Source of the DNA: Candidatus Lokiarchaeum ossiferum
Lineage (GTDB): Archaea > Asgardarchaeota > Lokiarchaeia > Sigyniarchaeales > Promethearchaeaceae
DNA: 32,000 nucleotides
Assembly: GCA_025839675.1 (NCBI GenBank)
Contig: CP104013.1
Coordinates: 2,460,001 to 2,492,000 of the forward strand
Direction: 5' to 3'
Of the stretch, positions 12,504-30,586 are shown one piece after another. Within the stretch, counting starts at the first letter, position 1. Each line of letters opens with the position of its first letter. Both the position numbers and the translations under genes were made by a program. The notes beneath the pieces were generated by a model that did not search any database, was not told where the DNA came from, and worked only from the letters and a program-made list of their open reading frames with translations.

Positions 12504-12822
12504 ATAATAAATTCTCTGCATTTTTACAGACGTTTTTGTAAATTGAGTTGTATTTTTGCCGTTTATTTCCCTCAAAATGGAATAATTCTATTTTTTTTTC
12601 TACTCTTTATGGAATTTTTCCAAGTTTTCATTTGGAGTTTGGAAATATTTGATTCGGTTCATTTTTCATGTATAAAGAGCATAATATTCACCAATTTCTT
12701 ACTTAGGGGGAAAAATTAATTAAAAATCGATTAGCTTTATTTCAACGATTGGTTCTATAATGAATAAGGATATTTATCATCCCTTTTTTTGGGAGGGATA
12801 GATCAAATATGCAGGGATCCAT

Positions 12823-13128
12823 ATGTGCTACTATGAAAAAATCGTTCAGGAATTTCAATCGCAGTGTTTAGAACAAATGACTGGGGATTATGTGAAATTT
12901 GTTTCTGAGCAAATTATTACCTTGATGAAAGAATTGAAAGAGGCAGAGCAAAACAATCTTCCTAATCTAACGATGATTCGAGAAGATATTACCCATAATT
13001 TGGTTTTGCTAAATATTATGCTCAAATCAACAGAAGATCCCGATTATTACAAACAATCAAACCAATTATCCAATTGTGAACGTGATTTTCTCCGAAATGA
13101 GTTTATTCCCCTTATTTTTAATAGTTGA
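12823..13128 (+). CDS. Hypothetical small helical protein
   Basis: 101-aa ORF with no motif, isolated in a sparsely coding region. Confidence 0.3.
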   Translation: MCYYEKIVQEFQSQCLEQMTGDYVKFVSEQIITLMKELKEAEQNNLPNLTMIREDITHNLVLLNIMLKSTEDPDYYKQSNQLSNCERDFLRNEFIPLIFNS

Positions 13129-14311: not shown

Positions 14312-14417
14312 TTTTTTTCCCTCTTTTCTTTGCTTTGCAATTATGAAAAATATTATTTTTATTTAATATGTTAAAGGTTACTTGCCTATATAAGTCTGTG
14401 GATGTTTATCGTGAATA

Positions 14418-14446
14418 TTCATTGACATTCTTTGACGATCAATGAA
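14418..14446. repeat. 8-bp inverted repeat TTCATTGA-N13-TCAATGAA, with a third TCAATGA copy at 14473..14479
   Basis: Read directly from the sequence. Lies 107-168 nt upstream of the ArsR-type gene start (14311, minus strand). Confidence 0.5.
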
Positions 14447-14649
14447 CACTTTTAGAAAAATTGATTTTATGTTCAATGATCGTATGAATTCAATTTCTTA
14501 ATTTTTTATTAAAAATTTTATAAAATCTTAATAATTTGCTTAATTGAGTGTTTGATCAAACAACAATATACTTGATTATAAAGTATCACATAGAATATTT
14601 ATTTATACTTTGTGGACATTGTATTACATCTTTTTATCTCCATTTCAGC

Positions 14650-14718
14650 ACAGTTTTGCGCATTTAATACTAGGAAAAATTTACTTCTAAAAGCGGTCAT
14701 AATTTTTAGCAAAACTGT
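14650..14718. repeat. 10-bp perfect inverted repeat ACAGTTTTGC ... GCAAAACTGT (49-nt spacer), with further ACAGTTTT/AACAGTT copies at 14728 and 14850
   Basis: Read directly: ACAGTTTTGC at 14650..14659 and its reverse complement at 14709..14718. ACAGTTTT recurs at 14728..14735 and AAAACAGTT at 14850..14858. Confidence 0.5.
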
Positions 14719-15230
14719 CCTTAAGATACAGTTTTCAGAATTTCACAAAATTTATAAGCATAATCCTTTGAAAAAAGTATGAATTAGGTGAAAAGTTAAG
14801 TAGTTATATGGAAATGCAAAATAGTTATATATAAAAAAAATCAGTTTGAAAAACAGTTCAGTAAAGGGTGGTCTTACAACTAAGGTGATCTAAAAAAAAC
14901 TCCGATGAATTGGATATAAAACATATTTTAATGAAGATTATTGAAGATTACAAAAGCTTTGCAAAAAATAAAGACATTAAATTTTTTAATCAGCATTTAA
15001 CAAGCTATATGAAGTGATAGAACCCCAATTGGGAACTTTACTTGGAAACATTTCGCATGGAAAATGGAAGGAAAAGTAAAAAAAACTAGCAAACATTTCT
15101 TGTGATCTTGAAAATCACCCACAACGGATCAATTTATCTTTGTAAAAATCGATTTGTGGTGGTCTGAATAGTTTTTACTAATGGATTACTGCCCAATAGA
15201 TAAGAAGACCATATGGAAAGCAAAGAAAGC

Positions 15231-15277
15231 TTTAAATTTTGAGAAAATCATTGTATCGTCAGAATCACTAGTGATTC
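15231..15277 (+). promoter_or_regulatory. Candidate promoter/operator of the histone-fold gene: TATA-like TTTAAATT (15231..15238) and perfect 16-bp palindrome GAATCACTAGTGATTC (15262..15277)
   Basis: The palindrome starts about 24 nt downstream of the end of the TATA-like element, near the expected TSS, and ends 25 nt before the ATG at 15303. TATA-like strings are frequent in this AT-rich DNA. Confidence 0.3.
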
Positions 15278-15302
15278 ATCGTAGTTGAAAAGGTATTTCA
15301 TT

Positions 15303-15533
15303 ATGGTATATACAGCAAAATATGTAAGAATTTCAAAAATTAAGGAACTTCTCATTCATAACGACCAAAAAATCAGAGTTTCTGGTGATGCAAAAGAGAA
15401 GCTGGCAGAATTTTTAGATAAGGCAATTGAAAAAGCAGCTGAGGAAATGATTAATAAACTCCCAAGAAAAACTAAAGGGGAAGGAAAAGGACAATTAAAG
15501 AGAATCACATTTCAGCTTGAAGATTTTAAGTAG
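15303..15533 (+). CDS. Histone-fold-like small DNA-binding protein (archaeal histone / DUF1931-like)
   Basis: The ORF track starts at TTG 15285. I prefer ATG 15303, which has AGGT 8 nt upstream. Layout: alpha1 ISKIKELLI, loop, long alpha2 GDAKEKLAEFLDKAIEKAAEEMINKL, extended loop PRKTKGEGKGQLKR, then ITFQLEDF (compare RKTIKAEDI in archaeal histones). Confidence 0.5.
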   Translation: MVYTAKYVRISKIKELLIHNDQKIRVSGDAKEKLAEFLDKAIEKAAEEMINKLPRKTKGEGKGQLKRITFQLEDFK

Positions 15534-15570
15534 TTAAAATGTGGACCCAAGTATTTTCCGGATAACAAAA

Positions 15571-15578
15571 TTTTTTTT
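15571..15578 (+). terminator. Oligo-T tract (T8) downstream of the histone-fold gene
   Basis: T8 run 38 nt after the TAG stop at 15531..15533. Confidence 0.3.
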
Positions 15579-15909
15579 CTTATTAAACTAGCTTCACAGG
15601 CTTGGAACATAGACTTTTGCTCAAATTGTATGGATTCTATAGGAAAGAAAATAAATGATTACTCTATATCTATCAAAAATTGAGAGGTTAATTTCTTTTT
15701 TTTTTGATTGAAAGCGCCTTTTCAATTTTCATTGGAAAGTATTAAATATCCAAATTCATTAAAAAATGAAGAGAAAACGAAAACTTTCTTTTGCTCCATA
15801 AAGCCTTCACGCTAATATTCTGAACGAATAAACGGGTTTGAAGAATATTTTAATTTGTATCAGTCAGAACAATACTATAGCATTTAATTATATTTAAGTT
15901 CGCGAAGGA

Positions 15910-17139
15910 ATGATGTATTTTATGCAAAAATCTATTTTGCAAGATCGTGAGGAAATATTAAAAAATTCCAAGAAACACTACTTTTCTTTAGGTGTTGATG
16001 ATGGGGCAGCCAGTTTGTGTAAGAACAATTTTCAATATGGCTTGGCTAAGATGCATTATGTCCAAAATCAACTTGGTGGTGTTTCTGATGCAACATTTAT
16101 TTCTACTCCTGATGAAACGATATCCCGAAATCGAAAGCGTTGGGAATCAGGCTATGGATATGGTGGAAAATTGACATATGGGGATAAAAAAGATCCCTTT
16201 ATTTTCATCGATACCAAACCTAATGCATGCGGAATGCTTGTAGGCGGTTTAGACAAACTTCCAAAACCAGATGAAATAATAAAACAAATCAATACAATCA
16301 TCACACAAGACAGTTATATTGATGATATCAAACTACAATGGGATTTCAAGAAGGGAAATCATTTTATTGATGTATTCCAGACAGATCAAGAATTCGGAGA
16401 TCCCAGTAAATTCCCAAAATATATGTTTGTTATCCATGGTTCGGTTCCCGAGTTACGAAATGAAACCAGTAAAGGTCCTGGACTATATTATGATAGCTCG
16501 AAAACTCTTTACGATATGTGCAATAAAATAGAAACACCTTTTGGTCCAAGTTATTATTTGGATGGTACAAATGCAAGAGAATATTTTGAGTTTTTCAAAT
16601 ATGCTAAAAAATTTGCAGCCGAGAAACGAGAAAAGGTAGCAGAACTACTTTTTGGTAAATTCGATGTTATTTCCAACCCAATGCATCAAGGTTTACTATC
16701 TTATGGGGAGATATTGCTTGGAGCTCAACATATTACCGATGATTCAAGGAAACTTTTTCCTGTGGCATTACGATCAGATTTACCACTATATATTGTGTCT
16801 GCACTTCCTAATTTATCAGATGAACAGATAGATGATCTTGGGTTTGAAAATCGAGCGAAAAAATTGGGAGTCCTGCCACATTTACAAAATCTTAATGTTC
16901 TCCCACATGGGGGAGGTTATGCTTTGCCCCACATAAATTGTGTGAAGAAGGTTTTGGAAATTGATGGAGAACGATTCTTTGTTTGTGAGCAAGAAATGGA
17001 AGATGGAATAACAATCTTCTCCGATGTAGCAGAAACACAATTCTTGTATCGCGGAAAGAAAATCATTAATAAAATTGAATCCCTTTCACTAGGTACTATA
17101 GAAGCGAAGTTACACCCAAAATTTGTTTTAAAAATATAA
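15910..17139 (+). CDS. Uncharacterised protein with RtcB-like (RNA 3'-phosphate ligase superfamily) motif order; short divergent form
   Basis: 409 aa. In order: PNAC107GM (compare RtcB DIGCGM), KGNH151FIDV (GTGNHFIE), VIH176GS (LHSGSRG), NPMH259 (CHHN), LPH333GGG (SHGAGR). The Cys to first His spacing is much shorter than in canonical RtcB. Confidence 0.4.
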   Translation: MMYFMQKSILQDREEILKNSKKHYFSLGVDDGAASLCKNNFQYGLAKMHYVQNQLGGVSDATFISTPDETISRNRKRWESGYGYGGKLTYGDKKDPFIFIDTKPNACGMLVGGLDKLPKPDEIIKQINTIITQDSYIDDIKLQWDFKKGNHFIDVFQTDQEFGDPSKFPKYMFVIHGSVPELRNETSKGPGLYYDSSKTLYDMCNKIETPFGPSYYLDGTNAREYFEFFKYAKKFAAEKREKVAELLFGKFDVISNPMHQGLLSYGEILLGAQHITDDSRKLFPVALRSDLPLYIVSALPNLSDEQIDDLGFENRAKKLGVLPHLQNLNVLPHGGGYALPHINCVKKVLEIDGERFFVCEQEMEDGITIFSDVAETQFLYRGKKIINKIESLSLGTIEAKLHPKFVLKI

Positions 17140-17168
17140 TTTTTTTTTACTAACAGGAGATTGAATAA

Positions 17169-17714
17169 ATGATACCAAAATTTTTGTTTTTCACTAGAGG
17201 AGTTGGACGAAATAAAAAAGAACTCCAATCGTTTGAATCAGCATTGAGAGATGCAGGAATATCATTTTTGAATTTGGTTACAGTATCTTCGATATTTCCA
17301 CCAAATTGCAAAGAAATTTCACGGGAAGAAGGGATGAAAAGGATAAAGCCAGGACAAATAACATTTTGTGTAATGGCTCGACATTCTTCAAATGAAAAAA
17401 ATCGGCTCGTGTCTGCTTCGATTGGAGTCGCAAAACCAAGAGACGAAAATCACTATGGATACCTAAGTGAACATCATTCTTTCGGGCAAGATGAAGATAC
17501 AGCAGGTAATTTTGCGGAAGACTTAGCAGCATCCATGTTAGCAAGCACTTTGGGAATTCCTTTTGATATTGATGCGAATTATGATGATAAACGGGAGATT
17601 TTTCACTTGAGTGACAAAATCATCGAAACCAAAAGCACAACCGCAACAGCAATTGTTGAAAAAGATGGTGAATACACCACCGTTATTGCTGCAGCAGTTT
17701 TTATCCTAGAATAA
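17169..17714 (+). CDS. pdaD: Pyruvoyl-dependent arginine decarboxylase
   Basis: 181 aa. FFTRGVG near the N-terminus and the self-cleavage site context NLVTVSSIFPP (Ser-Ser). Overall collinear with archaeal PdaD. GGAG lies 10 nt upstream of the ATG. Confidence 0.9.
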   Translation: MIPKFLFFTRGVGRNKKELQSFESALRDAGISFLNLVTVSSIFPPNCKEISREEGMKRIKPGQITFCVMARHSSNEKNRLVSASIGVAKPRDENHYGYLSEHHSFGQDEDTAGNFAEDLAASMLASTLGIPFDIDANYDDKREIFHLSDKIIETKSTTATAIVEKDGEYTTVIAAAVFILE

Positions 17715-17744
17715 TCAATAAAGATTAATAAATTGGAGAAAAAA

Positions 17745-18749
17745 ATGACGAAACACCTGTTACGGTCAAAAGTAGAACCATTCGATCCTAAAAAAGTTAA
17801 AACTGTACAAGACGCGTTCGAAGCTTTATCACATACGTCTTTCCAAGGGCGAAATCTCGGAAAAGCATTGGATGTGATGTTCCAAATGGTGCAAGAAGAG
17901 TCATGTCTAAAAGTTCTGACTCTTTCGGGAGCAATGGTTCCAGCTGGAATGGAAGAAATTGTCTGCCAATTGATTGAACATCACATTATTGATGCTGTTG
18001 TCACAACAGGTGCAAACATTATTCATTCAATAGTAAATTCCTTTGATCCAACACCCGAACATCAAGCCCATTATATCGGAGCTGAAGGTGTTGATGATGC
18101 TGAATTGTATAAACACCGGATAAATCGAATTTATGATATTTTTTTACCCGAAGAGGGATATGGATATGCTGAAGATGGATTACTGCAAATAATTTCAGAA
18201 AAATTTAGTCCATCGATAAAACATGTTCTTACTCCTTCTGAACTCTTCGAATTTTTAGGGGAAAAACTACCCGGAAGAGGATTATTACAAGTAGCTTATC
18301 AAAATAAGACGCCAATATTTTGTGGAGCAACTTCCGATTCGGAGCTAGGTTTAAACTTGATGAAATACCGAAAACGCAACGATATTAATATCACCCTGGA
18401 TGAGCTTAAGGATATCGAATATTTTGCAAACTTGATCAGGAAGCACGAACACTATGGCACAATAATTATAGGCGGAGGAGTTCCCCGCAATTGGGCACAA
18501 CAAGTTTTCCCATATTTGGATCAAATGGATCAAGGTACGGGGGGAAAACAATACAATGGCTATCATTATAGTATAAGATTTCATACAGCAACACAATACG
18601 ATGGTGGCCTCTCCGGATGTACGATTTCGGAAAGTATTTCATGGGGTAAATATGCAAAGAACGCGACACATCAAAGTGTTTGGGTTGATGCCACAATTGG
18701 ATTTCCCTTAATTGTGACAGCACTTTTTCAGAAATTGGGATTGATTTGA
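17745..18749 (+). CDS. dys: Deoxyhypusine synthase
   Basis: The ORF track starts at TTG 17733. ATG 17745 is preceded by GGAG. Family blocks LSGAMVPAGM, TTGANIIHS, IGGGVPRNW and SWGK (active-site Lys region). Confidence 0.9.
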   Translation: MTKHLLRSKVEPFDPKKVKTVQDAFEALSHTSFQGRNLGKALDVMFQMVQEESCLKVLTLSGAMVPAGMEEIVCQLIEHHIIDAVVTTGANIIHSIVNSFDPTPEHQAHYIGAEGVDDAELYKHRINRIYDIFLPEEGYGYAEDGLLQIISEKFSPSIKHVLTPSELFEFLGEKLPGRGLLQVAYQNKTPIFCGATSDSELGLNLMKYRKRNDINITLDELKDIEYFANLIRKHEHYGTIIIGGGVPRNWAQQVFPYLDQMDQGTGGKQYNGYHYSIRFHTATQYDGGLSGCTISESISWGKYAKNATHQSVWVDATIGFPLIVTALFQKLGLI

Positions 18750-18772
18750 AAAACGTGATGTGAGGTGAGAAG

Positions 18773-18910
18773 TTGCCAAAAAAATCAAGAAAAAATTGGG
18801 ACTATGAAGCAAAAAAAAGAAGAATTAACCCCAAACATGTTCAAAAAAGAAAGGTTGATGACGATTTTGAAGATGGGGACGATCTATTTATAGATTATGA
18901 TCATGATTGA
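18773..18910 (+). CDS. Possible 45-aa small protein (basic N-terminal half, acidic C-terminal half)
   Basis: Not in the ORF track (<60 aa). TTG start 4 nt after GAGGTGA, 24 nt downstream of the dys stop. Translation LPKKSRKNWDYEAKKRRINPKHVQKRKVDDDFEDGDDLFIDYDHD. Weak evidence only. Confidence 0.25.
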   Translation: MPKKSRKNWDYEAKKRRINPKHVQKRKVDDDFEDGDDLFIDYDHD

Positions 18911-19163
18911 ATTTTTTGGAGTTTTTTTATATAATTTTTAAATGGAAGAACCCATTTACGGATTCAGAAGATAATGCATACCTTAGGATGATGTATTGAA
19001 ATATTTTCAACTCAAAAAGACAATTCAGCAGAACAATTCGAGAATTGATTCAAGCATTCAAATAATCCCTACATTTTCAAAGAAATTTTTTGATGACAAA
19101 ATATTTAAGGTCATTCTTTGTATATATCATAGCAACATTGAAAGCAAAAAAGGGGAAGGAAAC

Positions 19164-19898
19164 ATGGTAGCCGATAAATCAAAAAAAAATAGGGATGGTT
19201 CCAAGAATGATAAGGTGGATTTAAAAAAAGCCTTCACTATTCGTATCGAACAAAGCATTCTAGATAATTTGAAAAAAGCAAGCGATAATACTCGGTTACG
19301 TCAAGCGACTCAAGCACGGACTTATTTGCAGATGAGTCAATTTGTGGTCACCCAATCGAATTTAGGAATAGAAGCGTATGATAGATCTCCAATGGGATTA
19401 TACCCCAAAAAAATCTGGGGAAACTTATTAGAAAGTCTGCCAGAGAATAAACAATTTGAAGTGGGAGATTCTTTGGGCATGATGATTTTGACCAACTGTG
19501 GAATTATGCAAATTGAAAGTTTAGAATCAAAAATGGATTTTCTAGCGGGATTGGGATGGTTTGATATTCGGATGTTTCCAGAGAGAGAAGAGACAAATCT
19601 CGTAAATTATTATGGAATTTTAGCCCACGATTGGCCAATTAATGTAGTTCATGCCCTTTTATTTCGGATTCTCACGCAACATGAGTTTCCTTCGAAACTA
19701 ACAGTAAAAACAATCAAAAATTATTATGGAAAAACTGTTGAACAAATTCGATCCTTAAGCCGTCAAAAAAAAAATGCGGATATCTACAATACTCCAGAAC
19801 CATTAATCCAGTATATCGAAACTTTAGATGGACGGGAGCAAAATTATTCACCCGATTGCAGTTTTTACATTTTTAATAAGCTAAAAACTGAAGGTTAA
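19164..19898 (+). CDS. Putative ribbon-helix-helix (CopG-like) DNA-binding protein with an uncharacterised C-terminal domain
   Basis: The ORF track starts at 18996. ATG 19164 has GGGGAAGG upstream. After a Lys-rich tail, KAFTIRIEQSILDNLKKASDNTRLRQATQARTYLQM has a beta-strand/helix/helix RHH pattern. The remaining ~180 aa have no motif. Confidence 0.45.
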   Translation: MVADKSKKNRDGSKNDKVDLKKAFTIRIEQSILDNLKKASDNTRLRQATQARTYLQMSQFVVTQSNLGIEAYDRSPMGLYPKKIWGNLLESLPENKQFEVGDSLGMMILTNCGIMQIESLESKMDFLAGLGWFDIRMFPEREETNLVNYYGILAHDWPINVVHALLFRILTQHEFPSKLTVKTIKNYYGKTVEQIRSLSRQKKNADIYNTPEPLIQYIETLDGREQNYSPDCSFYIFNKLKTEG

Positions 19899-19945
19899 AC
19901 TTCTTTACTAATTAATTGTTTTCATCAAATATTAGAGAAAAAAAA

Positions 19946-21607
19946 TTAGTTCCAATATCGGCTGGCACGCTCATCTCGAATATGATATGGACTAGCGTGA
20001 AATAATTTTCCTTTAATAATCATATAAGTGATCCAAATTATAAATATGGTACACAGCGCCGAGAAAAATCCAGCAATAAGTCTTGCTACTAGCCCAGTTA
20101 GATCATTTATGATTAAACTAAATATCGTCGCATCGATTCCAATAAGGGTAACAATAAGAATAATTTTGAAATAAGGCGTTATTTTCTCCCTATTTTGCTC
20201 TCTAACCTTAGCATAATATCCAGTTCTAGATCGAATACGACTTTGCACTGGTTTCAAATCAGTTTCTTCAGTAGTTTTTCTTTTTGTCATTCCAAAAGTG
20301 GAATCTTTAGTTCTGATAAACTCATAACTATCCCTTACTTCATCTAATGCAATGTGCTTGATTCCATAAAATGCTAACAAATTCCATCCAATTGAAAAGG
20401 TTATTAAAAAGATCCGGACAGTTATATTGAGGGATATTGTTAATACAAAAATCATAAGTGCATCAAATGCAACAATTATCCACAGGAAAAATAAAGTGGC
20501 ATCCATTATAGAATAAAAATGAATTTTTGTTTTCGGAGGAAATTTATGTTTTAATATGGGGCGAAGGATTGCATAAAGCCAAGTAATATTCCATAATATA
20601 ATACAACTCAATATTATATAGTTAGGATCCTCAAATCCCCAAATTATATTCACCAATAACAACACTAAACCAAGCCCAAATAAAATCAAAGTACCTTGAT
20701 CAGGAACAACTTTAAACAAGGTAATTCCATCATTTTGCTCAACTGGGAAAACAATCTCAAGAGATTTTTCTTTATGGCAATAAGGACAAGATGCTGATAA
20801 GAATTCTTCTTCTTTTCTAAAAACTTTTGGAACACATTCATAGCACACAAGTTTTTTGCACGTGTTACACAAAACAGATTTTGTTTCAAAGAGATCATCT
20901 GAACATGTTCCACATTTTGGAATTTCTCCATGTGCATAAAATTCAATGGGAACTTGGTGAGTATAGGTAATAAATTCTTCAATTCGATGAATTTTACTTT
21001 TTTCTGCTTTTTCTTCAGACGATTCTTCTTCAGATTTCTTTTTTGTGTCAAATAAACCACTCAAAAATGGATGAATCAAACCCCCCACGATGTTGAAGAC
21101 AAAACCAAATAGAATTCCTTGATCCCAATCATTATTTAAATATAACATATATCCAATAATTGCTAAGCATCCTGCGTAAATCAAACCTAAAACTAAAGTT
21201 TTCAATATAAGTTTTGCGGGAGTGCCAGATTTCGTGTAAAATTTTTGTGCTTTGGTTTCCTCACTTGAAGGATCCTTATAAATTGTCATTTCTCCAGTGA
21301 GAAATCCTTTAAAATCCCGATATATGGACCATATTAAACCAAACCCCCAAATTGCCCCAATGATATAAGAATTACGGACACTAGCTTTAAATATAATTGC
21401 ATATGCTAAAAATACAAAAACAATTAACCAAAGAACTGCAAAAAATAAATGCTTCACTCTCTCAGTTTCTGATAAGTTTTTTTTACCTTTTGATCGTTTA
21501 AAAAATTGAGATGCAGTTAAATTTTCTTCCTCTTCATGGTTTTCAAGAGTCATTTCATTTTTAAATTGAATTTTTATTATTTTAAATCTACTGTATTTAT
21601 TTTCCAC
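19946..21607 (-). CDS. Multi-pass membrane protein with a central eight-cysteine RING-like (C4C4) zinc-finger loop
   Basis: 553 aa. About 4 hydrophobic helices precede and about 6 follow a soluble loop containing C-x2-C-x11-C-x2-C-x4-C-x2-C-x15-C-x2-C(H) (residues 232-278). An acidic KKKSEEESSEEKAEK linker precedes it. Confidence 0.6.
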   Translation of the reverse strand: MENKYSRFKIIKIQFKNEMTLENHEEEENLTASQFFKRSKGKKNLSETERVKHLFFAVLWLIVFVFLAYAIIFKASVRNSYIIGAIWGFGLIWSIYRDFKGFLTGEMTIYKDPSSEETKAQKFYTKSGTPAKLILKTLVLGLIYAGCLAIIGYMLYLNNDWDQGILFGFVFNIVGGLIHPFLSGLFDTKKKSEEESSEEKAEKSKIHRIEEFITYTHQVPIEFYAHGEIPKCGTCSDDLFETKSVLCNTCKKLVCYECVPKVFRKEEEFLSASCPYCHKEKSLEIVFPVEQNDGITLFKVVPDQGTLILFGLGLVLLLVNIIWGFEDPNYIILSCIILWNITWLYAILRPILKHKFPPKTKIHFYSIMDATLFFLWIIVAFDALMIFVLTISLNITVRIFLITFSIGWNLLAFYGIKHIALDEVRDSYEFIRTKDSTFGMTKRKTTEETDLKPVQSRIRSRTGYYAKVREQNREKITPYFKIILIVTLIGIDATIFSLIINDLTGLVARLIAGFFSALCTIFIIWITYMIIKGKLFHASPYHIRDERASRYWN

Positions 21608-21775
21608 CAGATTTGTCTTTTATCTAAAAAAAACTCTCAGCATCCAGCAGTAAAGATTTTTAACAACAAGAGAGCAGATTATACCACTCAATTCTCTGAT
21701 TATTAGAAAATGGCAAAAATATGAAAGTAAGAGTAATAAAATAAAAAATGAAAAGAATAAGAAGAGAGTTAACAC

Positions 21776-22015
21776 TTAATTTGCTTCGGGCTCGATAAAT
21801 AACACATTATTTCCACGGACAAATAGTTCTTCGAATTTTCCGGATTCTTCGTTATTGGTAAATTCAACAGCATTGGTTACGATGATATTCATAAAATTAT
21901 CATATTCTTTTAAATTCCCAACATATCGGGTGCCATCTTTTAACCGAACAACAATTTCTTGACCGATACGTTTTTGCAAAGCACGCAATGGATTTCGTGA
22001 GTTATTATAAGCCAT
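21776..22015 (-). CDS. Sm-like (LSm/SmAP) RNA-binding protein
   Basis: 79 aa. Sm1 IVVRLKDGTRYVGNLKEYDNFMNIIVTNA and Sm2 FVRGNNVLFIEP. Confidence 0.9.
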   Translation of the reverse strand: MAYNNSRNPLRALQKRIGQEIVVRLKDGTRYVGNLKEYDNFMNIIVTNAVEFTNNEESGKFEELFVRGNNVLFIEPEAN

Positions 22016-22101
22016 TATTAATTCTTCTCCCCTAGGGGTTGATATGGTCTAAATAAATGCTTCCATCCTTAAAACGTTTATAGGAAGAAAGTTTGTTTTT
22101 A

Positions 22102-22779
22102 ATGGAAAGGAAGGTTCAAAAAAAATATAATCAGGGAAAAAAATTGGAGAAAACAAAAAAGCAAAAGATGAAAGAACGGTATAATTCGCTCAGTTATGTA
22201 GAAACTTATGATCGTCGGTATTATAATTTGCAATTTGAAAAATTTAACAATCTTACACAGGAATATCCCATAATAGGTGAAAACATATTAGACTTTGGAG
22301 CAGGAACTGGATTACTCTGGGATTTTCTTCAAAAAAACAACTATCAACAACACCATATATCACAATCGCCAGATCCTATTCGTATTGTAGGAATAGATCT
22401 TTCTCGAAGTATGCTAAACCGATTTTACCATAAGATAGAAAATCACCTTACATCATCCGAGGCAATAGTAAAGGGTACCCATTTAATTTGTTGTGATGGA
22501 GAAAACTTACCCTTTAGATCAGCTTGCTTTTCGAATGTGTTCGCTCTTACAACTTTACAAAACTTACCCCATCTTGCTCAAGGGTTAAAAGAAATGCAAC
22601 GAATTAGTAAAAATAACGGAATTCAAAGAATTAGCTATCTTCGAAAATCAATCGAAAAAGAAGAATTAGAGCGCCATTTATCTGCAAAATTTGAGGAAGT
22701 CCAAGAAATTAAACCACATTCACCAGAAAAAATAGAATATTCTGAAGATTGGCTATTCATTGCCAAGAAGAAAGAGTAG
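22102..22779 (+). CDS. Class I SAM-dependent methyltransferase
   Basis: The ORF track starts at TTG 22093; ATG at 22102. Motif I ILDFGAGTGLL, post-I GIDLS, and CCDGENLPF (Methyltransf_11-like). Confidence 0.8.
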   Translation: MERKVQKKYNQGKKLEKTKKQKMKERYNSLSYVETYDRRYYNLQFEKFNNLTQEYPIIGENILDFGAGTGLLWDFLQKNNYQQHHISQSPDPIRIVGIDLSRSMLNRFYHKIENHLTSSEAIVKGTHLICCDGENLPFRSACFSNVFALTTLQNLPHLAQGLKEMQRISKNNGIQRISYLRKSIEKEELERHLSAKFEEVQEIKPHSPEKIEYSEDWLFIAKKKE

Positions 22780-22805
22780 ATTTAGATATAACGCAAAATT
22801 TTGAT

Positions 22806-23720
22806 TTAATATTTTTCTAACTGTGATCGTTCAGAACCAAACATTCTATCAAGAAATTCATCTACATCAAAGGTAACTTCATAATTTTTCAAGAAAAAGT
22901 GCTGAATATTTTGCAGATCTCGCGCCAGATAAGAGAGAGCATTTGGATGGGTAGACTCTTCCCATTGAGGAAAATCGATCAATTGAACTTGTTCATCGGC
23001 AGCCATTACAATATTGAATTCACCTAAATCACAATGAATTAAGTGGGCTTCGGTAAATAAAGCTTCAACAATGCGCAAAATTTGATTGACTACATCCATA
23101 GGGTCCGTTAACGGAGGGATCAAGCTTAAATCATTGCCATCGATCAATTCCATAACCACGATATGCCGGTTTTGGCCAAGAGCTTTTGGAACATTCAAAT
23201 TTAAAGGTTCAATTCGTTTCAATGCTTCATATTCGCTTTCAGCAGATAGGCGACTTACGTATAACCAAGAAATATGACGACGATTTTTCACATAATTGCG
23301 AAGTTTCCTTACTTTACGAAAACTTGTTTGACCAATACGATGAATTTTTAGAGCCACATCGTTTCCATCGGGAGTTTTTCCAAAAAAAACATCCGATTCT
23401 TTTCCCCGCCCGATAGCGTCACCTACGGCAACTACAATATTTTTTTCAACGAGTGCATTTAGTGCCAAAACATCGTAAGATTCAGAAATTAGTTGATAAC
23501 CGATATATCCCAACTGAGAACTTCTTTGTAAAATACCAATTTGATGAATTTTATCCAATCTAAATTGAGTTTCAGAACGATTAATTCGGGCATAAAAACT
23601 AATTTGTTCCACAGGGACAAATTGGAATCGGCGCATCCCCAATTCAATTCCAGTTAAAATACGAAGGTCTTCTTTATCCAATTCTCTTACAAGATTAGCA
23701 GCACGGAAAATTTGAGGCAT
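22806..23720 (-). CDS. rio2: Rio2-type atypical serine protein kinase (N-terminal winged helix plus RIO domain)
   Basis: 304 aa. The wHTH region RILTGIELGMRRFQFVPVEQI is collinear with archaeal Rio2. Also GRGKESDVF (P-loop-like), VALKIHRIGQTSFRKV, and catalytic IHCDLGEFNI followed by LIDFPQ. Confidence 0.9.
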   Translation of the reverse strand: MPQIFRAANLVRELDKEDLRILTGIELGMRRFQFVPVEQISFYARINRSETQFRLDKIHQIGILQRSSQLGYIGYQLISESYDVLALNALVEKNIVVAVGDAIGRGKESDVFFGKTPDGNDVALKIHRIGQTSFRKVRKLRNYVKNRRHISWLYVSRLSAESEYEALKRIEPLNLNVPKALGQNRHIVVMELIDGNDLSLIPPLTDPMDVVNQILRIVEALFTEAHLIHCDLGEFNIVMAADEQVQLIDFPQWEESTHPNALSYLARDLQNIQHFFLKNYEVTFDVDEFLDRMFGSERSQLEKY

Positions 23721-23800
23721 TTTAAGAATAACTCCTTAGAATTTTAGAATTTGGTTTGGTTGTTTGAAGAAAAGTACAAAAAAGATAGAAATCAATGGGA

Positions 23801-24250
23801 TCATTCAATTTGGGTGACTTTGGTCATTCGGTCGCCTTGTTTAATGGAAGTTATCAAATCAAGTCCTTCAACAACCTGTCCGAAAACTGTATGTTTACCG
23901 TCTAAATGGGCAGTGTGTTCGCGAGTTAAGACGATGAAAAATTGACTTCCACCTGTATCCTTGCCTGCATGCGCCATACTTAAAGCACCAGGTTTGTGGA
24001 TCAGCGGATTTCCATCAGTTTCACATTTAATCTTCCAACCGGGACCACCAGTACCAGTTCCATTTGGACATCCTCCTTGAATTACAAATTGAGGAATTAC
24101 TCGATGAAAAGTAAGACCATCATAAAATCCCTTATTGATCAACTTCAAAAAGTTTGCGACAGTTCCAGGGGCATGTTCTGGGTACAATTCTATCATTAAT
24201 GTGCCCTTATTTGTTTCCATTTTAACTTTAGGATTAACCATTTTTAACAC
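23801..24250 (-). CDS. Cyclophilin-type peptidyl-prolyl cis-trans isomerase
   Basis: 149 aa. [52 protein letters not shown]. Confidence 0.9.
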
Positions 24251-24382
24251 CTACCCAAATGAATGGAAGATCACCAAAAAAACTTCTGACCATGAAATTA
24301 AATTGTTATATCATAGGGTTATGAAAAGGGAAGAAAAAAGTAAAGGCATGATATGATTTATTAAGAAGTATGAAAAAAGAAA

Positions 24383-24700
24383 TTACATTCCACCCGAGTG
24401 ACTGGTCACTAAATCCAATTCTGCAACCACCACATTCTGATCTCCAACAGATTGAGACGTTTGAGCCAAATCTTTGAACAGATCCCCTTTTCGAATGGTT
24501 TTCCCCGAATTAAAAATTTGGTGCTGATCATACAGCTGTGAAAGTTGTTGACTCTCTAATGGTCGACCCGTATTCGTTAAAGTTTGAATCGCTTCAGAAA
24601 AAATTCTATCAATGCTCATATCAGGGTTACTGATTTTAACAAAGAACGGTTTGTTTGATAAAGCTGTATTAATCTTGACTACATAATTTTCTTCTGACAT
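24383..24700 (-). CDS. Ubiquitin-like (beta-grasp) small protein ending in Gly-Gly-Met
   Basis: 105 aa. HQIFNSGKTIRKGDLFKDL parallels ubiquitin RLIFAGKQLEDGRTLSDY. C-terminal VVVAELDLVTSHSGGM parallels STLHLVLRLRGG plus one extra residue. Confidence 0.55.
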   Translation of the reverse strand: MSEENYVVKINTALSNKPFFVKISNPDMSIDRIFSEAIQTLTNTGRPLESQQLSQLYDQHQIFNSGKTIRKGDLFKDLAQTSQSVGDQNVVVAELDLVTSHSGGM

Positions 24701-24921
24701 TTTAAATCCCTAATTAGTAATTAGTAAGAATTGCTATATATTATCTTTTGAAATTGCACCTTTAAAAAGTCAATGAAAAAATGAACTAATGGATTTAAGT
24801 TCATCGAAATTAGAAATTTATTGTATTTCTTCTTCCTTTTTATAAAAAAACTCTGAACTTTTGGGCATAAGACTAAGGGGTTACAAAAAATCATAAATTG
24901 TCTATTCTTATATATCTTAAG

Positions 24922-27348
24922 ATGAAAAAGATTTTTTACATTAGAATGATTTTCTTTGCATGCATTTTACTCCCATTCTTTATAGTAACAAATAGTCCAT
25001 CAATCTTTGATGAACAACAAGAATTGACACCGTTATCACATTCAGAATCAAACGAATGGACTTATCTCATATACCTTTGTGGTGATAATGATCTCGATCC
25101 TGAAGCGGTAGAAGATCTAAATGAAATGGAGAAGGGTTTCGTGAATGGTGCAAAAATAAACATTTTAGTTTTATGGGATCGTTATGAACAACCCGCAAAT
25201 TTATATCTTATATCTAATGATTATGATCAATTTCATTTTACAACTGTCGCCTTAAATTACCCTACAGAATGGAAATCTGAGCCTAATATGGGAGATAATA
25301 CCACATTGCAACAATTTATTCAATATGCGGAGATTAACTATCCAGCAAATCATTGGGGGTTCAATTTTTGGGATCATGGAGCAGGTCAATATGGTGTCTG
25401 TTTTGATGATTCTACCATAAATGAAACCGATGATACAAGTGAAGCTGATGGTTTGGAAATTGAAGAAATTCTCCCAGTATTCGAAAATTCAGGAATTCAA
25501 AAATGGGATTTGATTTCATTTGATTGTTGTTTAATGAATTTAGTAGAATGGGTTAATGAGTTTAAAGAATTTTGTGATTATTTTGTTGCATCTCAAGAAA
25601 GTATTCCAGGGCAAGGATTTGATTATGTTCAAATAGTACAAGGGTTAACTAATGGTTCCGTTCTCACAGGCTTGGATTTAGGACATTTAATTGTAAATAG
25701 TTACTATTCTTATTATACTTCCTTAAGCTCTCAAGTAGGCTACAATTTTCCAACAACAATTACTTTAATCTCTATGGCAGAAATTCAAAACTTGACTCAA
25801 GCTTTTGGAACCTTTACAACAGGATTATTGAATGGTTTAACACCTAAAAGCAGAATTGAGTTGCAACAACTGCGAGAAATTGCTTTAGAAATGGATTATC
25901 CATTTTTGATTGATTTAGGACATTTCCTCACATTGATTCAAGAGACATCTTCAAACTCCACTTGGAGAAATAATGCTAAAAATGTATTAATTGCCTACGA
26001 TCAGATGATTATTTCTTTCAAACAGACTAATATGAATAGCGCAACGGGCATGTCAATCTTCTTTCCGGGAACATATTCAGCGAGTATGATAGATTATTAT
26101 GAACAGCGCTATGATTTCGCATTTATGACAAATTGGACTTCTTTCTTAAAAGAATATCACAGTATGGCACATTTAGGGATCCAGTGGAGTGGTTTAAAGA
26201 TCATTGAAACTCAAAGTAGTAATGGCGATGGTAATTTGGATAGCGGAGAATCAGGTGATTTGATGGTTAATTTTACAAATATCGGGGATTTAACAATCAT
26301 AAATCCTTGCTTTAAATTATATATTAAAAATACATCATTAGCGTCAAGTAATTCAGAATGTATGATTGATGGGGTTTTTAGTCCAGATTTAACCATTAAC
26401 TTGTCATTTTCAGTCGATCTGTTTGAAATCGAATCAAATACAGAAATTGTATGTATTGTAGAAATTAATTTCGATTTAGTGAACTATACTGATATCGATT
26501 ACAATACATCAATTTTTTTCCTTAGTGATTTTAATGGGACATATTTAACCGGAGAAACAACTCTAAATACCGCGTATAAATTTACCCAAAATACAACATT
26601 TGCAGGAATGATGACCAATATCGTATCAAGTTTCATTGTGGAGGTGAATTTAGCCGAATATAACTTTGTACTGAACACATTAAATCATTTCGATTCAAGT
26701 GATTTTGATCTTTTCTTATATGGAGAAACAGAAGAAGGTGATGTAGAATTAATAGATTCCATGGAAACCTTCAATAACCCCGAAGTATTAGGGTATGATG
26801 CATATTCAAATGAAACCGTTTGGATACAAATTAAATCTTATGCTGGAGAAGGATTATTTATTTTAGAGGTATTATCTGGAGATGGCTTTGAGTTCCATAA
26901 AGAACCAGGCAGTTGGTTGGGTTATCCAATCGAAGTTAGTTCCAGCACCATTTTCACAGATTCAATTAACGGTCCCGGTTTTGGAGGAGTAACGTATTAT
27001 CTAATCTCTTTAAATGCTATTGCTGATATGCAAGCAGTCTTTGATTTACATGATAGTACTTCAGAAACAGGAGGAATGGCAGTATTTTATGGATATGCTG
27101 ATGATTTTTTAGAATCTGAAAGTGAAACCTACCCTTTAACCCTCTATTATCAAAATGTTGGTATAAGAAAAGAATATGTTGTTTTAGTTGTTATGCCAAT
27201 AAAGGGAGAAACTAAATACACCCTAAATATAACAATTTCAAAACAATTAATCGCTCCAATTGGTCAAATATCAATAGCAACCATCGCAATAAGCATTCTA
27301 ATTCTGAAATTACGAAATCGTTCCAAAAAACAAGAACAACCTTGTTAG
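24922..27348 (+). CDS. Exported clostripain-like (peptidase C11-type) cysteine protease homologue with a large C-terminal region and a C-terminal membrane anchor
   Basis: The ORF track starts at TTG 24898. ATG 24922 gives a signal-peptide-like MKKIFYIRMIFFACILLPFF. C11-like blocks YLIYLCGDNDL, ILVLWDR, FWDHGAG (His) and ISFDCCLM (Cys). More than a dozen N-x-S/T sequons by eye. Terminal helix ISIATIAISILILKL followed by RNRSKK. Confidence 0.7.
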   Translation: MKKIFYIRMIFFACILLPFFIVTNSPSIFDEQQELTPLSHSESNEWTYLIYLCGDNDLDPEAVEDLNEMEKGFVNGAKINILVLWDRYEQPANLYLISNDYDQFHFTTVALNYPTEWKSEPNMGDNTTLQQFIQYAEINYPANHWGFNFWDHGAGQYGVCFDDSTINETDDTSEADGLEIEEILPVFENSGIQKWDLISFDCCLMNLVEWVNEFKEFCDYFVASQESIPGQGFDYVQIVQGLTNGSVLTGLDLGHLIVNSYYSYYTSLSSQVGYNFPTTITLISMAEIQNLTQAFGTFTTGLLNGLTPKSRIELQQLREIALEMDYPFLIDLGHFLTLIQETSSNSTWRNNAKNVLIAYDQMIISFKQTNMNSATGMSIFFPGTYSASMIDYYEQRYDFAFMTNWTSFLKEYHSMAHLGIQWSGLKIIETQSSNGDGNLDSGESGDLMVNFTNIGDLTIINPCFKLYIKNTSLASSNSECMIDGVFSPDLTINLSFSVDLFEIESNTEIVCIVEINFDLVNYTDIDYNTSIFFLSDFNGTYLTGETTLNTAYKFTQNTTFAGMMTNIVSSFIVEVNLAEYNFVLNTLNHFDSSDFDLFLYGETEEGDVELIDSMETFNNPEVLGYDAYSNETVWIQIKSYAGEGLFILEVLSGDGFEFHKEPGSWLGYPIEVSSSTIFTDSINGPGFGGVTYYLISLNAIADMQAVFDLHDSTSETGGMAVFYGYADDFLESESETYPLTLYYQNVGIRKEYVVLVVMPIKGETKYTLNITISKQLIAPIGQISIATIAISILILKLRNRSKKQEQPC

Positions 27349-27432
27349 ATTGAATACTTTTATTATTTTTCTTTAAGTATAATAACTTGAAATGAAGGAG
27401 AAGCCATAAAAAAGAAATGTTATTCTATTTTT

Positions 27433-27858
27433 TTAATTCTGACGTAATTGCACAACCGTATCTTTGAGATGTTTAACTTTTTCAACATTTCTATCTTCTT
27501 CCAAGATTCCGCCAGCACACTCAGGACATTGAAAATTTAATTCCATCGCATCAATGAAGATATAACGTTGGGAACATCCATTATTACAATGGAAGAAATA
27601 ATTTTGATCTTCATATTTCATTCGGATTTCAAGTTTTTCAATCACTTCATTACCACGCTCTTTAATTAAGATAGGAAGATAATCAAAATTTTCATTCCAA
27701 TAATAGACAAACCACCCACTTCGTTTATCTCTGACCCGACGGAATATAGTCAATTTATTTTCATTTAAAATATAAAGAATTTTTCGCACTATATTTAATT
27801 TAATTTTGGTCAATTCTGCAATTTTTTCGTCAGTAGTTTCATCATCAGCGGTGAGCAA
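27433..27858 (-). CDS. tfe: Transcription factor E (TFIIE-alpha homologue); the true N-terminus very probably lies upstream of 27858
   Basis: Winged helix IVRKILYILNENKLTIFRRVRDKRSGWFVYYW (compare Sulfolobus TFE YRKTRDKDSGWFIYYW). Zinc ribbon C-x3-C...C-x2-C (FFHCNNGCSQRY...FQCPECAGG). The same frame stays open to 27960 and encodes TFE-like LKQVLKDFGNQEAIKIAKVLL. Confidence 0.85.
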   Translation of the reverse strand: MLTADDETTDEKIAELTKIKLNIVRKILYILNENKLTIFRRVRDKRSGWFVYYWNENFDYLPILIKERGNEVIEKLEIRMKYEDQNYFFHCNNGCSQRYIFIDAMELNFQCPECAGGILEEDRNVEKVKHLKDTVVQLRQN

Positions 27859-28136
27859 AACCTTGGCAATTTTGATAGCTTCTTGATTTCCAAAATCTTT
27901 TAGTACTTGTTTGAGTGTAGAACTGAGTTCTTTTTTTTCTGTGGGAATTCTATGGACACCTCAATAAAAAATAGTAAGTATTTAAAGATCACATTCGTAA
28001 AAAATTTTATTATAATTTGCTTTTTTCACCACTTTTTGCTATTTAAATTTTATTAAACTAAATCTTTAAGCACTCAACAATTACGTAAGATATATAGGAA
28101 TTCCTACGCTTCCAAGATTATAGGTGTAATATAACA

Positions 28137-28937
28137 ATGACTCATTACTTAATGAAAATAGTTGAAAATCCAAAACCAAAGGATCCAGTGAAAGATGCCC
28201 CCGATGTACATAAGCATTTTACTCGTTATTCAAAAGGAATGTTTGACGGCCCCGTATTTAAAGTATCTCAAACAAAAACAAAAATTTCTATTTGGTGTTC
28301 ATATGAATATGAAGATGTAGCAACCAAAATTGCGTTAAAATTAATTCCTGAAGATGAAATAATGGTGAAGGGAAATATCATTGGGGCCATGGATTTTAAA
28401 CCTTTGATAGAAAAAATAGGATTTTCAAAAGCTTGGTATCCAGTGAAGAGTAAAGGGAAAGCTGTGAACTATTCCGCCATAAATAAAACAAACGTTCCAG
28501 TTGCCAAAGAGATGTTAGTGGCTTTAGAAGAAAAAGGAACACCGTATGTTTATAATTTATTATCCTTTGCATCGAAAGATAAAACGGTAGATCTTAAAAC
28601 GAAAATGAAGCCTCCACGGCCATCAAGTAAAAATCCCGACGAAACTAGTCCCGGAGGTAAAATAAAGTTCTGCACATTAAAAATTCCAAACACTCCAGAG
28701 AATTTAGATTTAGTTCTTGATATGGTGGCTAAAGATTTCAAGGATGAAATCCCCCCAAAGTGGAAATCAATAACTATTTCAAATAGTTATGAAATTACAG
28801 ATCTTGAATTTCCTCCAAAGGATAAAAACCTAAATTCACGATTATTCCGCTTACATACTCTTCGAAAAGGAAAATTAAACCGCATCGCTGAAATCGATAA
28901 AAATAGTGTTACTAATACAATTGAATTCACTGCTTAA
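28137..28937 (+). CDS. Hypothetical protein (266 aa, Lys-rich, no recognisable motif)
   Basis: Clean ORF with ATG start, divergent from tfe and convergent with the small GTPase gene. No motif I can assign. Confidence 0.55.
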   Translation: MTHYLMKIVENPKPKDPVKDAPDVHKHFTRYSKGMFDGPVFKVSQTKTKISIWCSYEYEDVATKIALKLIPEDEIMVKGNIIGAMDFKPLIEKIGFSKAWYPVKSKGKAVNYSAINKTNVPVAKEMLVALEEKGTPYVYNLLSFASKDKTVDLKTKMKPPRPSSKNPDETSPGGKIKFCTLKIPNTPENLDLVLDMVAKDFKDEIPPKWKSITISNSYEITDLEFPPKDKNLNSRLFRLHTLRKGKLNRIAEIDKNSVTNTIEFTA

Positions 28938-28972
28938 GCAATAAAGTTCAATTTTTTATTTTTTTAACAAAT

Positions 28973-29521
28973 TTATGCTGTCATTGAAGAATCCAAAGTC
29001 ACTATTTGTAATTTCTCGAATAATTCGTTAAGCCCTTTCCCTGATTTTGCTGAAACAAATAAATGATCAATAAAACAATCATTATTCAAAAATTGAGATT
29101 TTATCTCTTCCCAATATGATTGGAATTCCAAAATAGTATCACTTTCTACTAAATCTGCTTTAGTTCCAGCAATTATAATCGGTATTCGAGGATTTTCATT
29201 CTGTAATAATTTATGCCAAGTAGTAATATTGTCGAAGGTTTGAAAACGACTTAAATCATATAAAATGATAGCAGCTTTAGTTCCTTTTATATATGCATCA
29301 TGAATAAAATGAAATCTTTGCTGACCCCCTAAATCAAAAGCTAAAAAAGCAGAATTATCTTCATCCTCTTCATTTTCCTCAAAGGGGACACACGCAAAGT
29401 CTACACCAATTGTCATTTCTGATGAATCATCAAAATTTTTATGACATTTTGCCCGAATGAGTGATGTCTTTCCTACACCCCCATCCCCGAGGATTGCAAT
29501 TTTGAATGTTCGAGTCTTCAT
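28973..29521 (-). CDS. Ras-superfamily small GTPase, Rab-like
   Basis: 182 aa. G1 GDGGVGKTS, switch I TIGVDF (Rab-type), G3 DLGGQQRF, G4 GTKADL, G5 SAKSGKGLNELF. An acidic insert FEENEEDEDNS lies between switch I and G3. No C-terminal Cys prenylation motif. Confidence 0.85.
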   Translation of the reverse strand: MKTRTFKIAILGDGGVGKTSLIRAKCHKNFDDSSEMTIGVDFACVPFEENEEDEDNSAFLAFDLGGQQRFHFIHDAYIKGTKAAIILYDLSRFQTFDNITTWHKLLQNENPRIPIIIAGTKADLVESDTILEFQSYWEEIKSQFLNNDCFIDHLFVSAKSGKGLNELFEKLQIVTLDSSMTA

Positions 29522-29713
29522 ATGGAGCCAAGTTAAATTGATTTATTGAAAAAACAAGTACTTCTAATTAAATTTCGATTTTTCTGTAAATAATTGTTTC
29601 TGTTCAATCGATTGGTGACAGATTTGTTACATATGGGATGTATTCAAGAAAAAATGAATGAAAAAAGGAACAGCTTAAGATTATTTAAATAAGATTTTTA
29701 TCAGAATAAAAGC

Positions 29714-30502: not shown

Positions 30503-30507
30503 CTGAA

Positions 30508-30517
30508 TTTTTTTTTT
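30508..30517 (+). terminator. Oligo-T tract (T10) immediately downstream of the DJ-1/PfpI-like gene
   Basis: T10 run 5 nt after the TAA stop at 30500..30502. Confidence 0.35.
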
Positions 30518-30586
30518 ATTGTTTTTAAAACCAAAAATGGTAAATGGGTTTTCAATTTCTTATTATTAAGGATTCGAAAACGGAAT

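Follow-up and report, generated by a model that had tools for sequence, protein, structure and literature searches.

Cascades of E1, E2 and RING proteins work in vitro in two archaeal groups, Caldiarchaeum (PMC5654768) and Helarchaeia (bioRxiv 10.1101/2023.07.25.550441). In the Caldiarchaeum RING E3, the substitution I30Q abolishes ubiquitylation and W58A and R69A impair it; the position of R69 is, according to the authors, conserved in every E3 RING protein as either Lys or Arg (PMC5654768). On the eukaryotic side, 49 transmembrane RING proteins are predicted in humans (PMC4021871). Here, a stretch of 32,000 nt from the Asgard archaeon "Candidatus Lokiarchaeum ossiferum" (contig CP104013.1, positions 2,460,001 to 2,492,000 of the forward strand; hereafter, the window) was analyzed, with the focus on NEF87_002062, a gene for a multi-pass membrane protein with an eight-cysteine module in its central loop. 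An original prediction, made from the letters of the window, correctly took the DNA to be archaeal and suggested that the module is a RING-like zinc domain and that the protein might be a membrane-embedded RING E3 ligase of a kind considered a hallmark of eukaryotes. Our reading, which is tentative and falls a little short of an even chance, is that NEF87_002062 encodes a species-restricted ten-helix protein that carries a cross-brace module and has a docking role without canonical E3 chemistry.

The open reading frame (ORF) spans 19946..21607 on the reverse strand and, according to the ORF list and its translation, encodes 553 aa from a GTG start, whereas both NCBI annotations begin at M19 (ATG at nt 21553) and give a product of 535 aa; residues are numbered throughout by the 553-residue ORF. 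The product is identical to NEF87_002062 (UYP45777.1) of strain B-35 and is automatically named "RING-type domain-containing protein" in UniProt; no paper citing either locus tag was found in the literature. An orthologue with 97% amino-acid identity and shared gene order is present in a second strain (GCA_041410205.1, locus L131). The two copies differ by 41 substitutions, 23 synonymous and 18 non-synonymous, with the ORF intact in both, for a ratio of non-synonymous to synonymous substitution rates (dN/dS) of 0.20 (Nei-Gojobori; binomial P = 9e-7 versus neutrality), which falls within the range of 0.01-0.27 for the neighbouring genes. The G+C content, the G+C content at third codon positions (GC3) and the codon usage of NEF87_002062 are typical of the locus. 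Given this ratio and the native composition, NEF87_002062 is a real protein-coding gene under purifying selection.

Eight of the 11 cysteines of the protein (residues 147, 232, 235, 247, 250, 255, 258, 274, 277, 335 and 519) belong to the module at residues 232-278. Its pattern, C-x2-C-x11-C-x2-C-x4-C-x2-C-x15-C-x2-C-H, or CGTC-x11-CNTC-x4-CYEC-x15-CPYC-H, was exactly as predicted for nt 20774-20914 when the sequence was read again. When 11 cysteines were placed at random over 553 positions, none of 50,000 placements yielded eight cysteines in 47 residues or four CxxC pairs, the maxima being seven cysteines within 47 residues and three pairs. Within the window, the ORF stretch that holds the module is the only one of at least 90 aa with two or more CxxC pairs.

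The sequence and structure searches point in the same direction, each of them weakly. When the isolated loop was searched against Pfam, the top family was zf-RING_2 (E = 5e-4), with an alignment that spans positions 2-43 of the 44 in the profile; lesser matches across the module were C3HC4_3, FYVE_2, RING_5, FYVE, PHD and B-box, all of them cross-brace families, and Prok-RING_4 scored E values of 0.48-3.6. The top match among PDB sequences was the RING of TRIM37 (PDB 3LRQ; E = 0.016), which aligned through all eight ligands and shares a C-x2-C-x4-C-x2-C core with the module; the remaining PDB matches were mostly PHD, RING or FYVE-like domains. The ligand spacers fit the RING consensus C-x2-C-x9-39-C-x1-3-H/C-x2-3-C-x2-C-x4-48-C-x2-C, except that ligands 4 and 5 are separated by x4 instead of x2-3, a spacer also found in the TRIM37 RING alignment. 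Structures were modelled on single sequences because, without homologues, no alignment could be built. The AlphaFold model of the loop (residues 210-296) has a predicted local distance difference test (pLDDT) score of 59.7 and a predicted template modelling score of 0.46 and contains, at low confidence, a beta hairpin around ligands 3-5 followed by helical turns, that is, a hairpin-plus-helix core. Among the top 50 Foldseek neighbours of this model in the PDB, almost all are RING/U-box ligase domains (best E = 3.6e-3, probability 0.99), including Ring1B, c-Cbl, Bre1/RNF20, TRIM37, BIRC7, Rad18 and Prp19, and most of the named neighbours in BFVD are RING proteins of giant viruses. The module most likely folds as a RING-superfamily cross-brace, an assignment for which the models and profiles provide moderate support.

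The remainder of the protein is predicted to be a membrane scaffold. Hydropathy and the helices of the full-length AlphaFold model concur on ten membrane helices arranged in five tight hairpins, although that model is otherwise poor and unusable (pLDDT 47.8). By Kyte-Doolittle windows and the AlphaFold helices, transmembrane helices (TM) 1-4 occupy residues 54-185 and TM5-10 residues 305-530, which agrees with the predicted arrangement of about four and about six helices around a central loop; the acidic linker expected ahead of the module is likewise present, at residues 186-231. The loops assigned to the outside comprise 4-7 residues each and hold a single Lys or Arg in total (1, 0, 0, 0, 0), in contrast to the inside tails and loops, which hold 12, 6, 17, 4, 15 and 5, for a sum of 59. 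The positive-inside rule predicts a cytoplasmic location for both termini and for the 119-residue loop that holds the zinc module; for the loop, this predicted placement bears on the topology question raised by the original prediction and agrees with the requirement of a cysteine-zinc domain. Comparison of the five TM hairpins for internal duplication revealed no significant mutual similarity. The features of the gene and its product are as follows.

19946..21553, reverse strand: gene NEF87_002062, 535 aa, with the ATG of M19 as start and the GTG at 21607 as alternative start
21449..21607, reverse strand: predicted N-terminal cytoplasmic tail, residues 1-53, with 12 Lys+Arg (hydropathy, charge count)
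21053..21448, reverse strand: predicted TM1-TM4, residues 54-185, two hairpins with outer loops of 5-6 residues; dN/dS 0.14
20915..21052, reverse strand: acidic Ser/Lys-rich linker, residues 186-231 ('DTKKKSEEESSEEKAEKSK...'), with pLDDT <50 in both models
20774..20914, reverse strand: eight-cysteine module, residues 232-278, read as a probable RING-superfamily cross-brace binuclear zinc domain
20696..20773, reverse strand: short linker joining the module and TM5, residues 279-304, in which the AlphaFold loop model predicts a beta strand, LEIVF
20366..20695, reverse strand: predicted TM5-TM8, residues 305-414, two hairpins; dN/dS 0.11
20177..20365, reverse strand: predicted second large cytoplasmic loop, residues 415-477, with 15 Lys+Arg; dN/dS 0.19
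19946..20176, reverse strand: predicted TM9-TM10 hairpin (residues 478-530), basic C-terminal tail and stop codon (hydropathy, charge)

Within the protein, constraint is strongest on the membrane scaffold, for which no relatives could be recognised: outside the zinc loop, no Pfam, NCBIfam or PDB relative was found at significance. One match below threshold, to Pfam SLATT_1 (E = 0.016; 15.7 bits versus a cut-off of 26.3), covers residues 454-515 (nt 20062-20248), that is, the last amphipathic helix and TM9-TM10. SLATT_1 is a two-TM effector domain of conflict systems; the match is probably an effect of composition.

In the mechanism that we propose, a polytopic protein of five tight hairpins would expose both termini and all long loops to the cytoplasm. 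The TM4-TM5 loop would bear a binuclear zinc cross-brace in which cysteine pairs 1 and 3 bind one zinc and pairs 2 and 4 the other. A flexible acidic linker of ~45 residues before the module and a linker of ~25 residues after it would keep the module near the membrane, where it could act as a zinc-stabilised docking or dimerisation unit that recruits a partner from the cytoplasm to the membrane scaffold. Such a docking role, without canonical E3 chemistry, appears to be the most likely function.

Among the alternatives, an active ligase fares best. The orthogroup table of the L. ossiferum genome includes ubiquitin (PF00240), Uba1/5-like E1s and a UQ_con E2 assigned to UBE2D, as well as RING asCOGs and JAB proteins (PMC9834061). 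Thus, the cognate ubiquitin, E1 and E2 are encoded in the same genome, per the supplement of that paper. As an active membrane-embedded RING E3, the protein would bind the ubiquitin-charged E2 of the host through its loop and ubiquitylate itself or neighbouring membrane proteins; it would have arisen independently as a functional analogue of ligases of the Hrd1, MARCH or RNF121 type. The RING-type signals from Pfam, PDB sequences and Foldseek and the cytoplasmic placement of the module argue for such a ligase, and C7-P-Y-C8 of the module resembles the CP-x-C of active RINGs such as c-Cbl, another point in its favour. So do the presence of ubiquitin, a Uba1/5-like E1 and a UQ_con E2 in the host (PMC9834061) and the activity in vitro of archaeal and Asgard cascades (PMC5654768; bioRxiv 10.1101/2023.07.25.550441).

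The details of the loop argue the other way. RINGs competent as E3s are expected to have Ile, Leu or Val ahead of ligand 2, Trp or another large hydrophobic residue at ligand 6 +4, and Arg or Lys past ligand 8. In the TRIM37 alignment, the E2-activating positions correspond to Thr234 (before ligand 2), Val262 (four residues after ligand 6) and His278 (after ligand 8); all three diagnostic Ile/Trp/Arg positions are non-canonical in the module, with F263 and K279 adjoining two of them. Because the Ile, Trp and Arg/Lys positions are occupied in this way, the module is probably not a canonical RING that activates E2~ubiquitin. Furthermore, the loop is weakly constrained. Between the two strains, it has accumulated 8 non-synonymous and 3 synonymous changes, for a dN/dS of 0.65 versus 0.09-0.19 in the other regions that differ (Fisher P = 0.036). 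The substitutions in the module core are D238A, K261N and L270F, of which K261N falls in the helix with the Trp position. The ligand cysteines are all unchanged, which is little informative at such divergence. There is also no linkage to genes of the ubiquitin system, none for E1, E2, JAB proteins or ubiquitin being found in the 32-kb window. With a profile score under the Pfam gathering threshold and without the E2-activating residues, the module is not classed as an E3 RING, although it may still work like one.

Of the proposed RING E3, then, the fold signals, the predicted cytoplasmic location and the host cascade hold up, and the E3 chemistry is called into question by T234, V262 and H278 in place of the key residues. 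E3 activity is doubtful and a ligase role possible rather than likely. An active membrane-embedded RING E3 is accordingly an unlikely reading of the gene, and canonical E3 activity as such has a similarly limited chance. We rate as distinctly unlikely a variant in which the protein is a working polytopic membrane RING ligase that has a non-canonical E2-binding surface and marks membrane proteins with the help of the UBE2D-like E2 of the host.

A different objection concerns the fold itself. The eight cysteines could make up a pair of sequential zinc ribbons independent of each other (C232/235/247/250 and C255/258/274/277), in which case the loop would hold a generic structural or nucleic-acid-binding unit such as prokaryotic membrane proteins often carry. 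Several observations weaken the case for a cross-brace and leave room for such ribbons: CxxC-x11-CxxC and CxxC-x15-CxxC are each a typical ribbon spacing; every RING signal lies under its formal threshold, zf-RING_2 scoring 20.7 bits with the loop and 16.4 bits with the whole protein versus a gathering score of 27.3; and the fold evidence is of low confidence, the structure resting on a model with a pLDDT of 59.7. Conversely, no ribbon or double-ribbon Pfam profile matched across the module at E ≤ 10, in a search in which the HMMER filters drop most matches weaker than ~E 0.1; the sole ribbon match of the scan covered 9 residues of Zn_ribbon_Thio2. No ribbon structures appeared among the top 50 Foldseek neighbours in either the PDB or BFVD, and knuckles 2 and 3 are only 4 residues apart. 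Zinc-ribbon knuckles have a repeated CPxCG signature, which the knuckles of the module lack. Two ribbons are therefore a rather remote prospect, and the RING-type cross-brace is supported as the best available assignment, ahead of them. The RING-like cross-brace of the original prediction survives in the sense that RING came first in Pfam, in PDB sequences and in Foldseek, albeit at scores that are all below formal thresholds.

The protein is an orphan. When 1.84 billion representative proteins were searched exhaustively with phmmer, the only match was the protein itself, and a word-indexed search of an index of 5.8e9 clusters returned the protein itself only. No further relative was found by tblastn in the GTDB genomes and IMG/VR, and a homologue search with the loop only produced no candidates. 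When GTDB DNA was scanned for the exact cysteine spacing, only TGC/TGT simple repeats were present among the matches listed.

The genomic context was compared with that of five other Lokiarchaeia, whose syntenic regions were located via homologues of a nearby 105-aa gene. Sequence resembling NEF87_002062 is absent from these regions (tblastn, six related loci). A block comprising the 105-aa candidate ubiquitin-like (Ubl) gene and the genes for a cyclophilin, Rio2, a methyltransferase and LSm is kept in four of the five (L003, L005/L006, L007 and L130), and the gene content beyond LSm is different in each. In L005, the gene past LSm is convergent and ends 9 nt away (12815-12825); it is a homologue of the gene at 18996-19898 of the window. 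In L. ossiferum, LSm and this gene are 1,877 nt apart (19899-21775), and NEF87_002062 occupies the gap. Thus, NEF87_002062 is a lineage-specific insertion or invention, restricted to "Ca. Lokiarchaeum ossiferum". The two genes that bound the gap are as follows.

21776..22015, reverse strand: LSm gene (Pfam LSM, 2e-21), upstream boundary of the insertion, with conserved synteny
18996..19898, forward strand: conserved gene of unknown function, convergent downstream boundary, with 30% identity (E = 2e-39) to L005:12825-13559 on the reverse strand

The gene at 18996-19898 has no Pfam, NCBIfam, PHROGs or PADLOC match. The other L. ossiferum strain has a 244-aa annotation for it, and its true start is for that reason probably near M57 of the 300-aa ORF.

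The orphan status and the insertion would both be explained if NEF87_002062 were cargo of a mobile element or an effector of a conflict system, namely, a fast-evolving, perhaps pore-forming membrane protein with a zinc sensor. In keeping with this idea, 1.9 kb has been inserted between conserved genes and is bracketed by a 16-nt imperfect inverted repeat (19894-19909 and 21649-21664, flanking the gene); the SLATT_1 match, weak as it is at E = 0.016, is to an effector domain; and a clostripain gene is likewise absent between TFIIE-alpha and Ubl in the relatives examined. However, the inverted repeat was rejected as an insertion terminus, being at chance level, with 21 further chance pairs of at least equal quality within these 2.2 kb, and foreign origin was rejected on composition, as G+C, GC3 and codon usage are native. 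Neither PHROGs nor PADLOC gave a match that would indicate viral or defence origin, IMG/VR contained no relative, and no integrase or transposase lies nearby. Taken together, these results make a mobile or conflict-system origin very unlikely. The absence of homologues beyond the species would also suit a spurious or decaying ORF without function, but this is scarcely credible for 535 codons in DNA of 32% G+C that are intact in two strains at a dN/dS of 0.20.

The original prediction attached weight to the proximity of a gene for a Ubl protein ending in Gly-Gly. The GG-ended gene exists, as follows.

24383..24700, reverse strand: 105-aa ORF NEF87_002067, C-terminus ...SHSGGM

The family of NEF87_002067 is well conserved across Lokiarchaeia, with 78 matches at 57-87% identity, and its loci comprise L001, L003, L005-L007, L129 and L130. 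In 28 aligned homologues (alignment A1), the C-terminus S-H-[S/A/T]-G-G is conserved, and the Gly-Gly is invariant; after it come 0-6 variable residues or, for some of the proteins, an extension of much greater length. This pattern looks like that expected of a processed ubiquitin-like modifier. UniProt automatically names the protein "Ubiquitin-like domain-containing"; Pfam, NCBIfam and the PDB contained no family that matches it, and hhalign against ubiquitin gave nothing. In most genomes, the gene sits between TFIIE-alpha and cyclophilin/Rio2; in P. syntrophicum, there is a 4-nt overlap with a 166-aa gene. Between NEF87_002067 and NEF87_002062 lie four genes, which differ in orientation. 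The conserved housekeeping block of TFIIE-alpha, Ubl, cyclophilin, Rio2, methyltransferase and LSm exists in relatives without the membrane protein; the proximity of the two genes is therefore coincidental, and the link drawn between them in the original prediction does not stand. The same block contains, in L. ossiferum, a gene for a clostripain-family protein (Peptidase_C11, 816 aa) at 24898-27348 on the forward strand, between TFIIE-alpha and Ubl. It is missing from that position in L003, L005, L007 and L130 and is a second lineage-specific insertion in the block.

Other features of the window were recorded along the way. A small GTPase of the Ras/Roc/Arf type (28973-29521, reverse strand; Pfam Ras, E = 8e-28) is a typical eukaryotic signature protein of Asgard archaea, and a gene of this type is also located upstream of the Ubl block in L003. 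Over positions 15900-31000 of the window, compared with L131, the synonymous divergence (dS) of the two L. ossiferum genomes forms a mosaic: LSm and a 266-aa unknown gene have a dS of 0, values of ~0.015-0.03 were obtained for Ubl, Rio2, cyclophilin and TFIIE-alpha, and deoxyhypusine synthase and the Ras-like GTPase reach 0.20-0.26. Such a mosaic suggests recombination between strains. At 17169-18749 (forward strand), a gene for a pyruvoyl-dependent arginine decarboxylase lies directly upstream of that for deoxyhypusine synthase, an order kept in the second strain; this pairing of polyamine and hypusine genes looks ordinary. Positions 14312-15909, a stretch of 1.6 kb, contain no ORF of at least 90 aa and no tRNA or Rfam match, and the whole window is likewise devoid of tRNA and Rfam features. 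An 82-aa ORF at 15285-15533 on the forward strand (…IRVSGDAKEKLAEFLDKAIEKAAEEM…) appears by eye to be histone-fold-like, and a 76-aa gene is annotated there in the second strain.

The RING-type label in UniProt was already known; what is new is the presence of a candidate RING-superfamily module in the central loop of an orphan ten-helix protein. If the protein were an active ligase, it would represent a multi-pass membrane RING E3 in a prokaryote and couple the Asgard ubiquitin cascade to a membrane, and it would bear on the beginnings of endocytic ubiquitin signalling and of signalling akin to endoplasmic-reticulum-associated degradation (ERAD). An independently evolved prokaryotic counterpart of ligases of the ERAD/MARCH type would then be available in a culturable organism. 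As the evidence stands, NEF87_002062 is better viewed as a lineage-specific gene innovation, a RING-fold module in a new membrane scaffold, and not as a window on eukaryogenesis, because it occurs in one species only, shows no linkage to ubiquitin genes and is without the diagnostic residues for E2 activation. The genome of L. ossiferum encodes 2,256 proteins that are absent from its cultured relative (PMC9834061).

The likeness to known systems differs from one system to the next. FYVE and PHD fingers share the ligand spacing of the module (2, n, 2, 4, 2, n, 2), and the Pfam families FYVE_2, FYVE and PHD score weakly on it. FYVE domains bind phosphatidylinositol 3-phosphate through the motifs WxxD, R(R/K)HHCR and RVC, and PHD fingers have a His at ligand 5 and a Trp before ligand 7. 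Both were rejected: the segments that correspond to the FYVE motifs are HGEIPK-C, KSVLCN and SASC, and the FYVE and FYVE_2 scores are under threshold; as for PHD, ligand 5 is Cys255, there is no Trp before ligand 7, and the score is 13.2 bits (E = 0.096) versus a cut-off of 24. Prok-RING_1/2/4 and double zinc ribbons are prokaryotic zinc modules too, and some of these Pfam modules are attached to transmembrane helices; the module of NEF87_002062 lacks a neighbourhood of Ubl or JAB genes.

The eukaryotic polytopic RING ligases Hrd1, Doa10/MARCH6, the MARCH family and RNF121/RNF175 are alike in that a multi-pass scaffold presents a RING-type module to the cytoplasm. In Hrd1, Doa10 and MARCH, the RING is at a terminus, whereas the module of NEF87_002062 is in a central loop. 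These ligases share no sequence with the membrane part of the protein: neither homology to the membrane domains of Hrd1, Doa10-MARCH and RNF121 nor their RING-H2/RING-CH subtype was found with Pfam, NCBIfam, PDB and phmmer. Because the gene is species-restricted, it is at most an analogue of the eukaryotic membrane ligases and not their ancestor; a protein without homologues outside its species has no bearing on the ancestry for which the original prediction considered it relevant.

By organismal context, the closest systems are the small archaeal RING E3s (Caldiarchaeum srfp, the Helarchaeia RING E3 and asCOG cog.003480), which likewise combine a RING-type module with a host that has a eukaryote-like set of ubiquitin, E1 and E2. 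These E3s are soluble RING-H2 proteins that are encoded in or near ubiquitin operons and keep I30, W58 and R69, whereas the module of NEF87_002062 is all-Cys and part of a ten-TM protein, shows no linkage to ubiquitin genes and does not have the triad. Compared with RING fingers in general, it matches in the end-to-end alignment with zf-RING_2, the beta-beta-alpha core of the low-confidence model and the RING/U-box Foldseek neighbours; it differs in its sub-threshold scores, in the Cys at ligand 4, in the x4 spacer where the consensus has x2-3, and in Thr/Val/His for Ile/Trp/Arg. The RING of CNOT4 is of the C4C4 type and is one of the RINGs with all-Cys ligands or long spacers. In fold, the putative cross-brace appears closest to the TRIM37 RING and the CNOT4 type, with which it shares the eight ligands and, in the case of TRIM37, the C-x2-C-x4-C-x2-C core.

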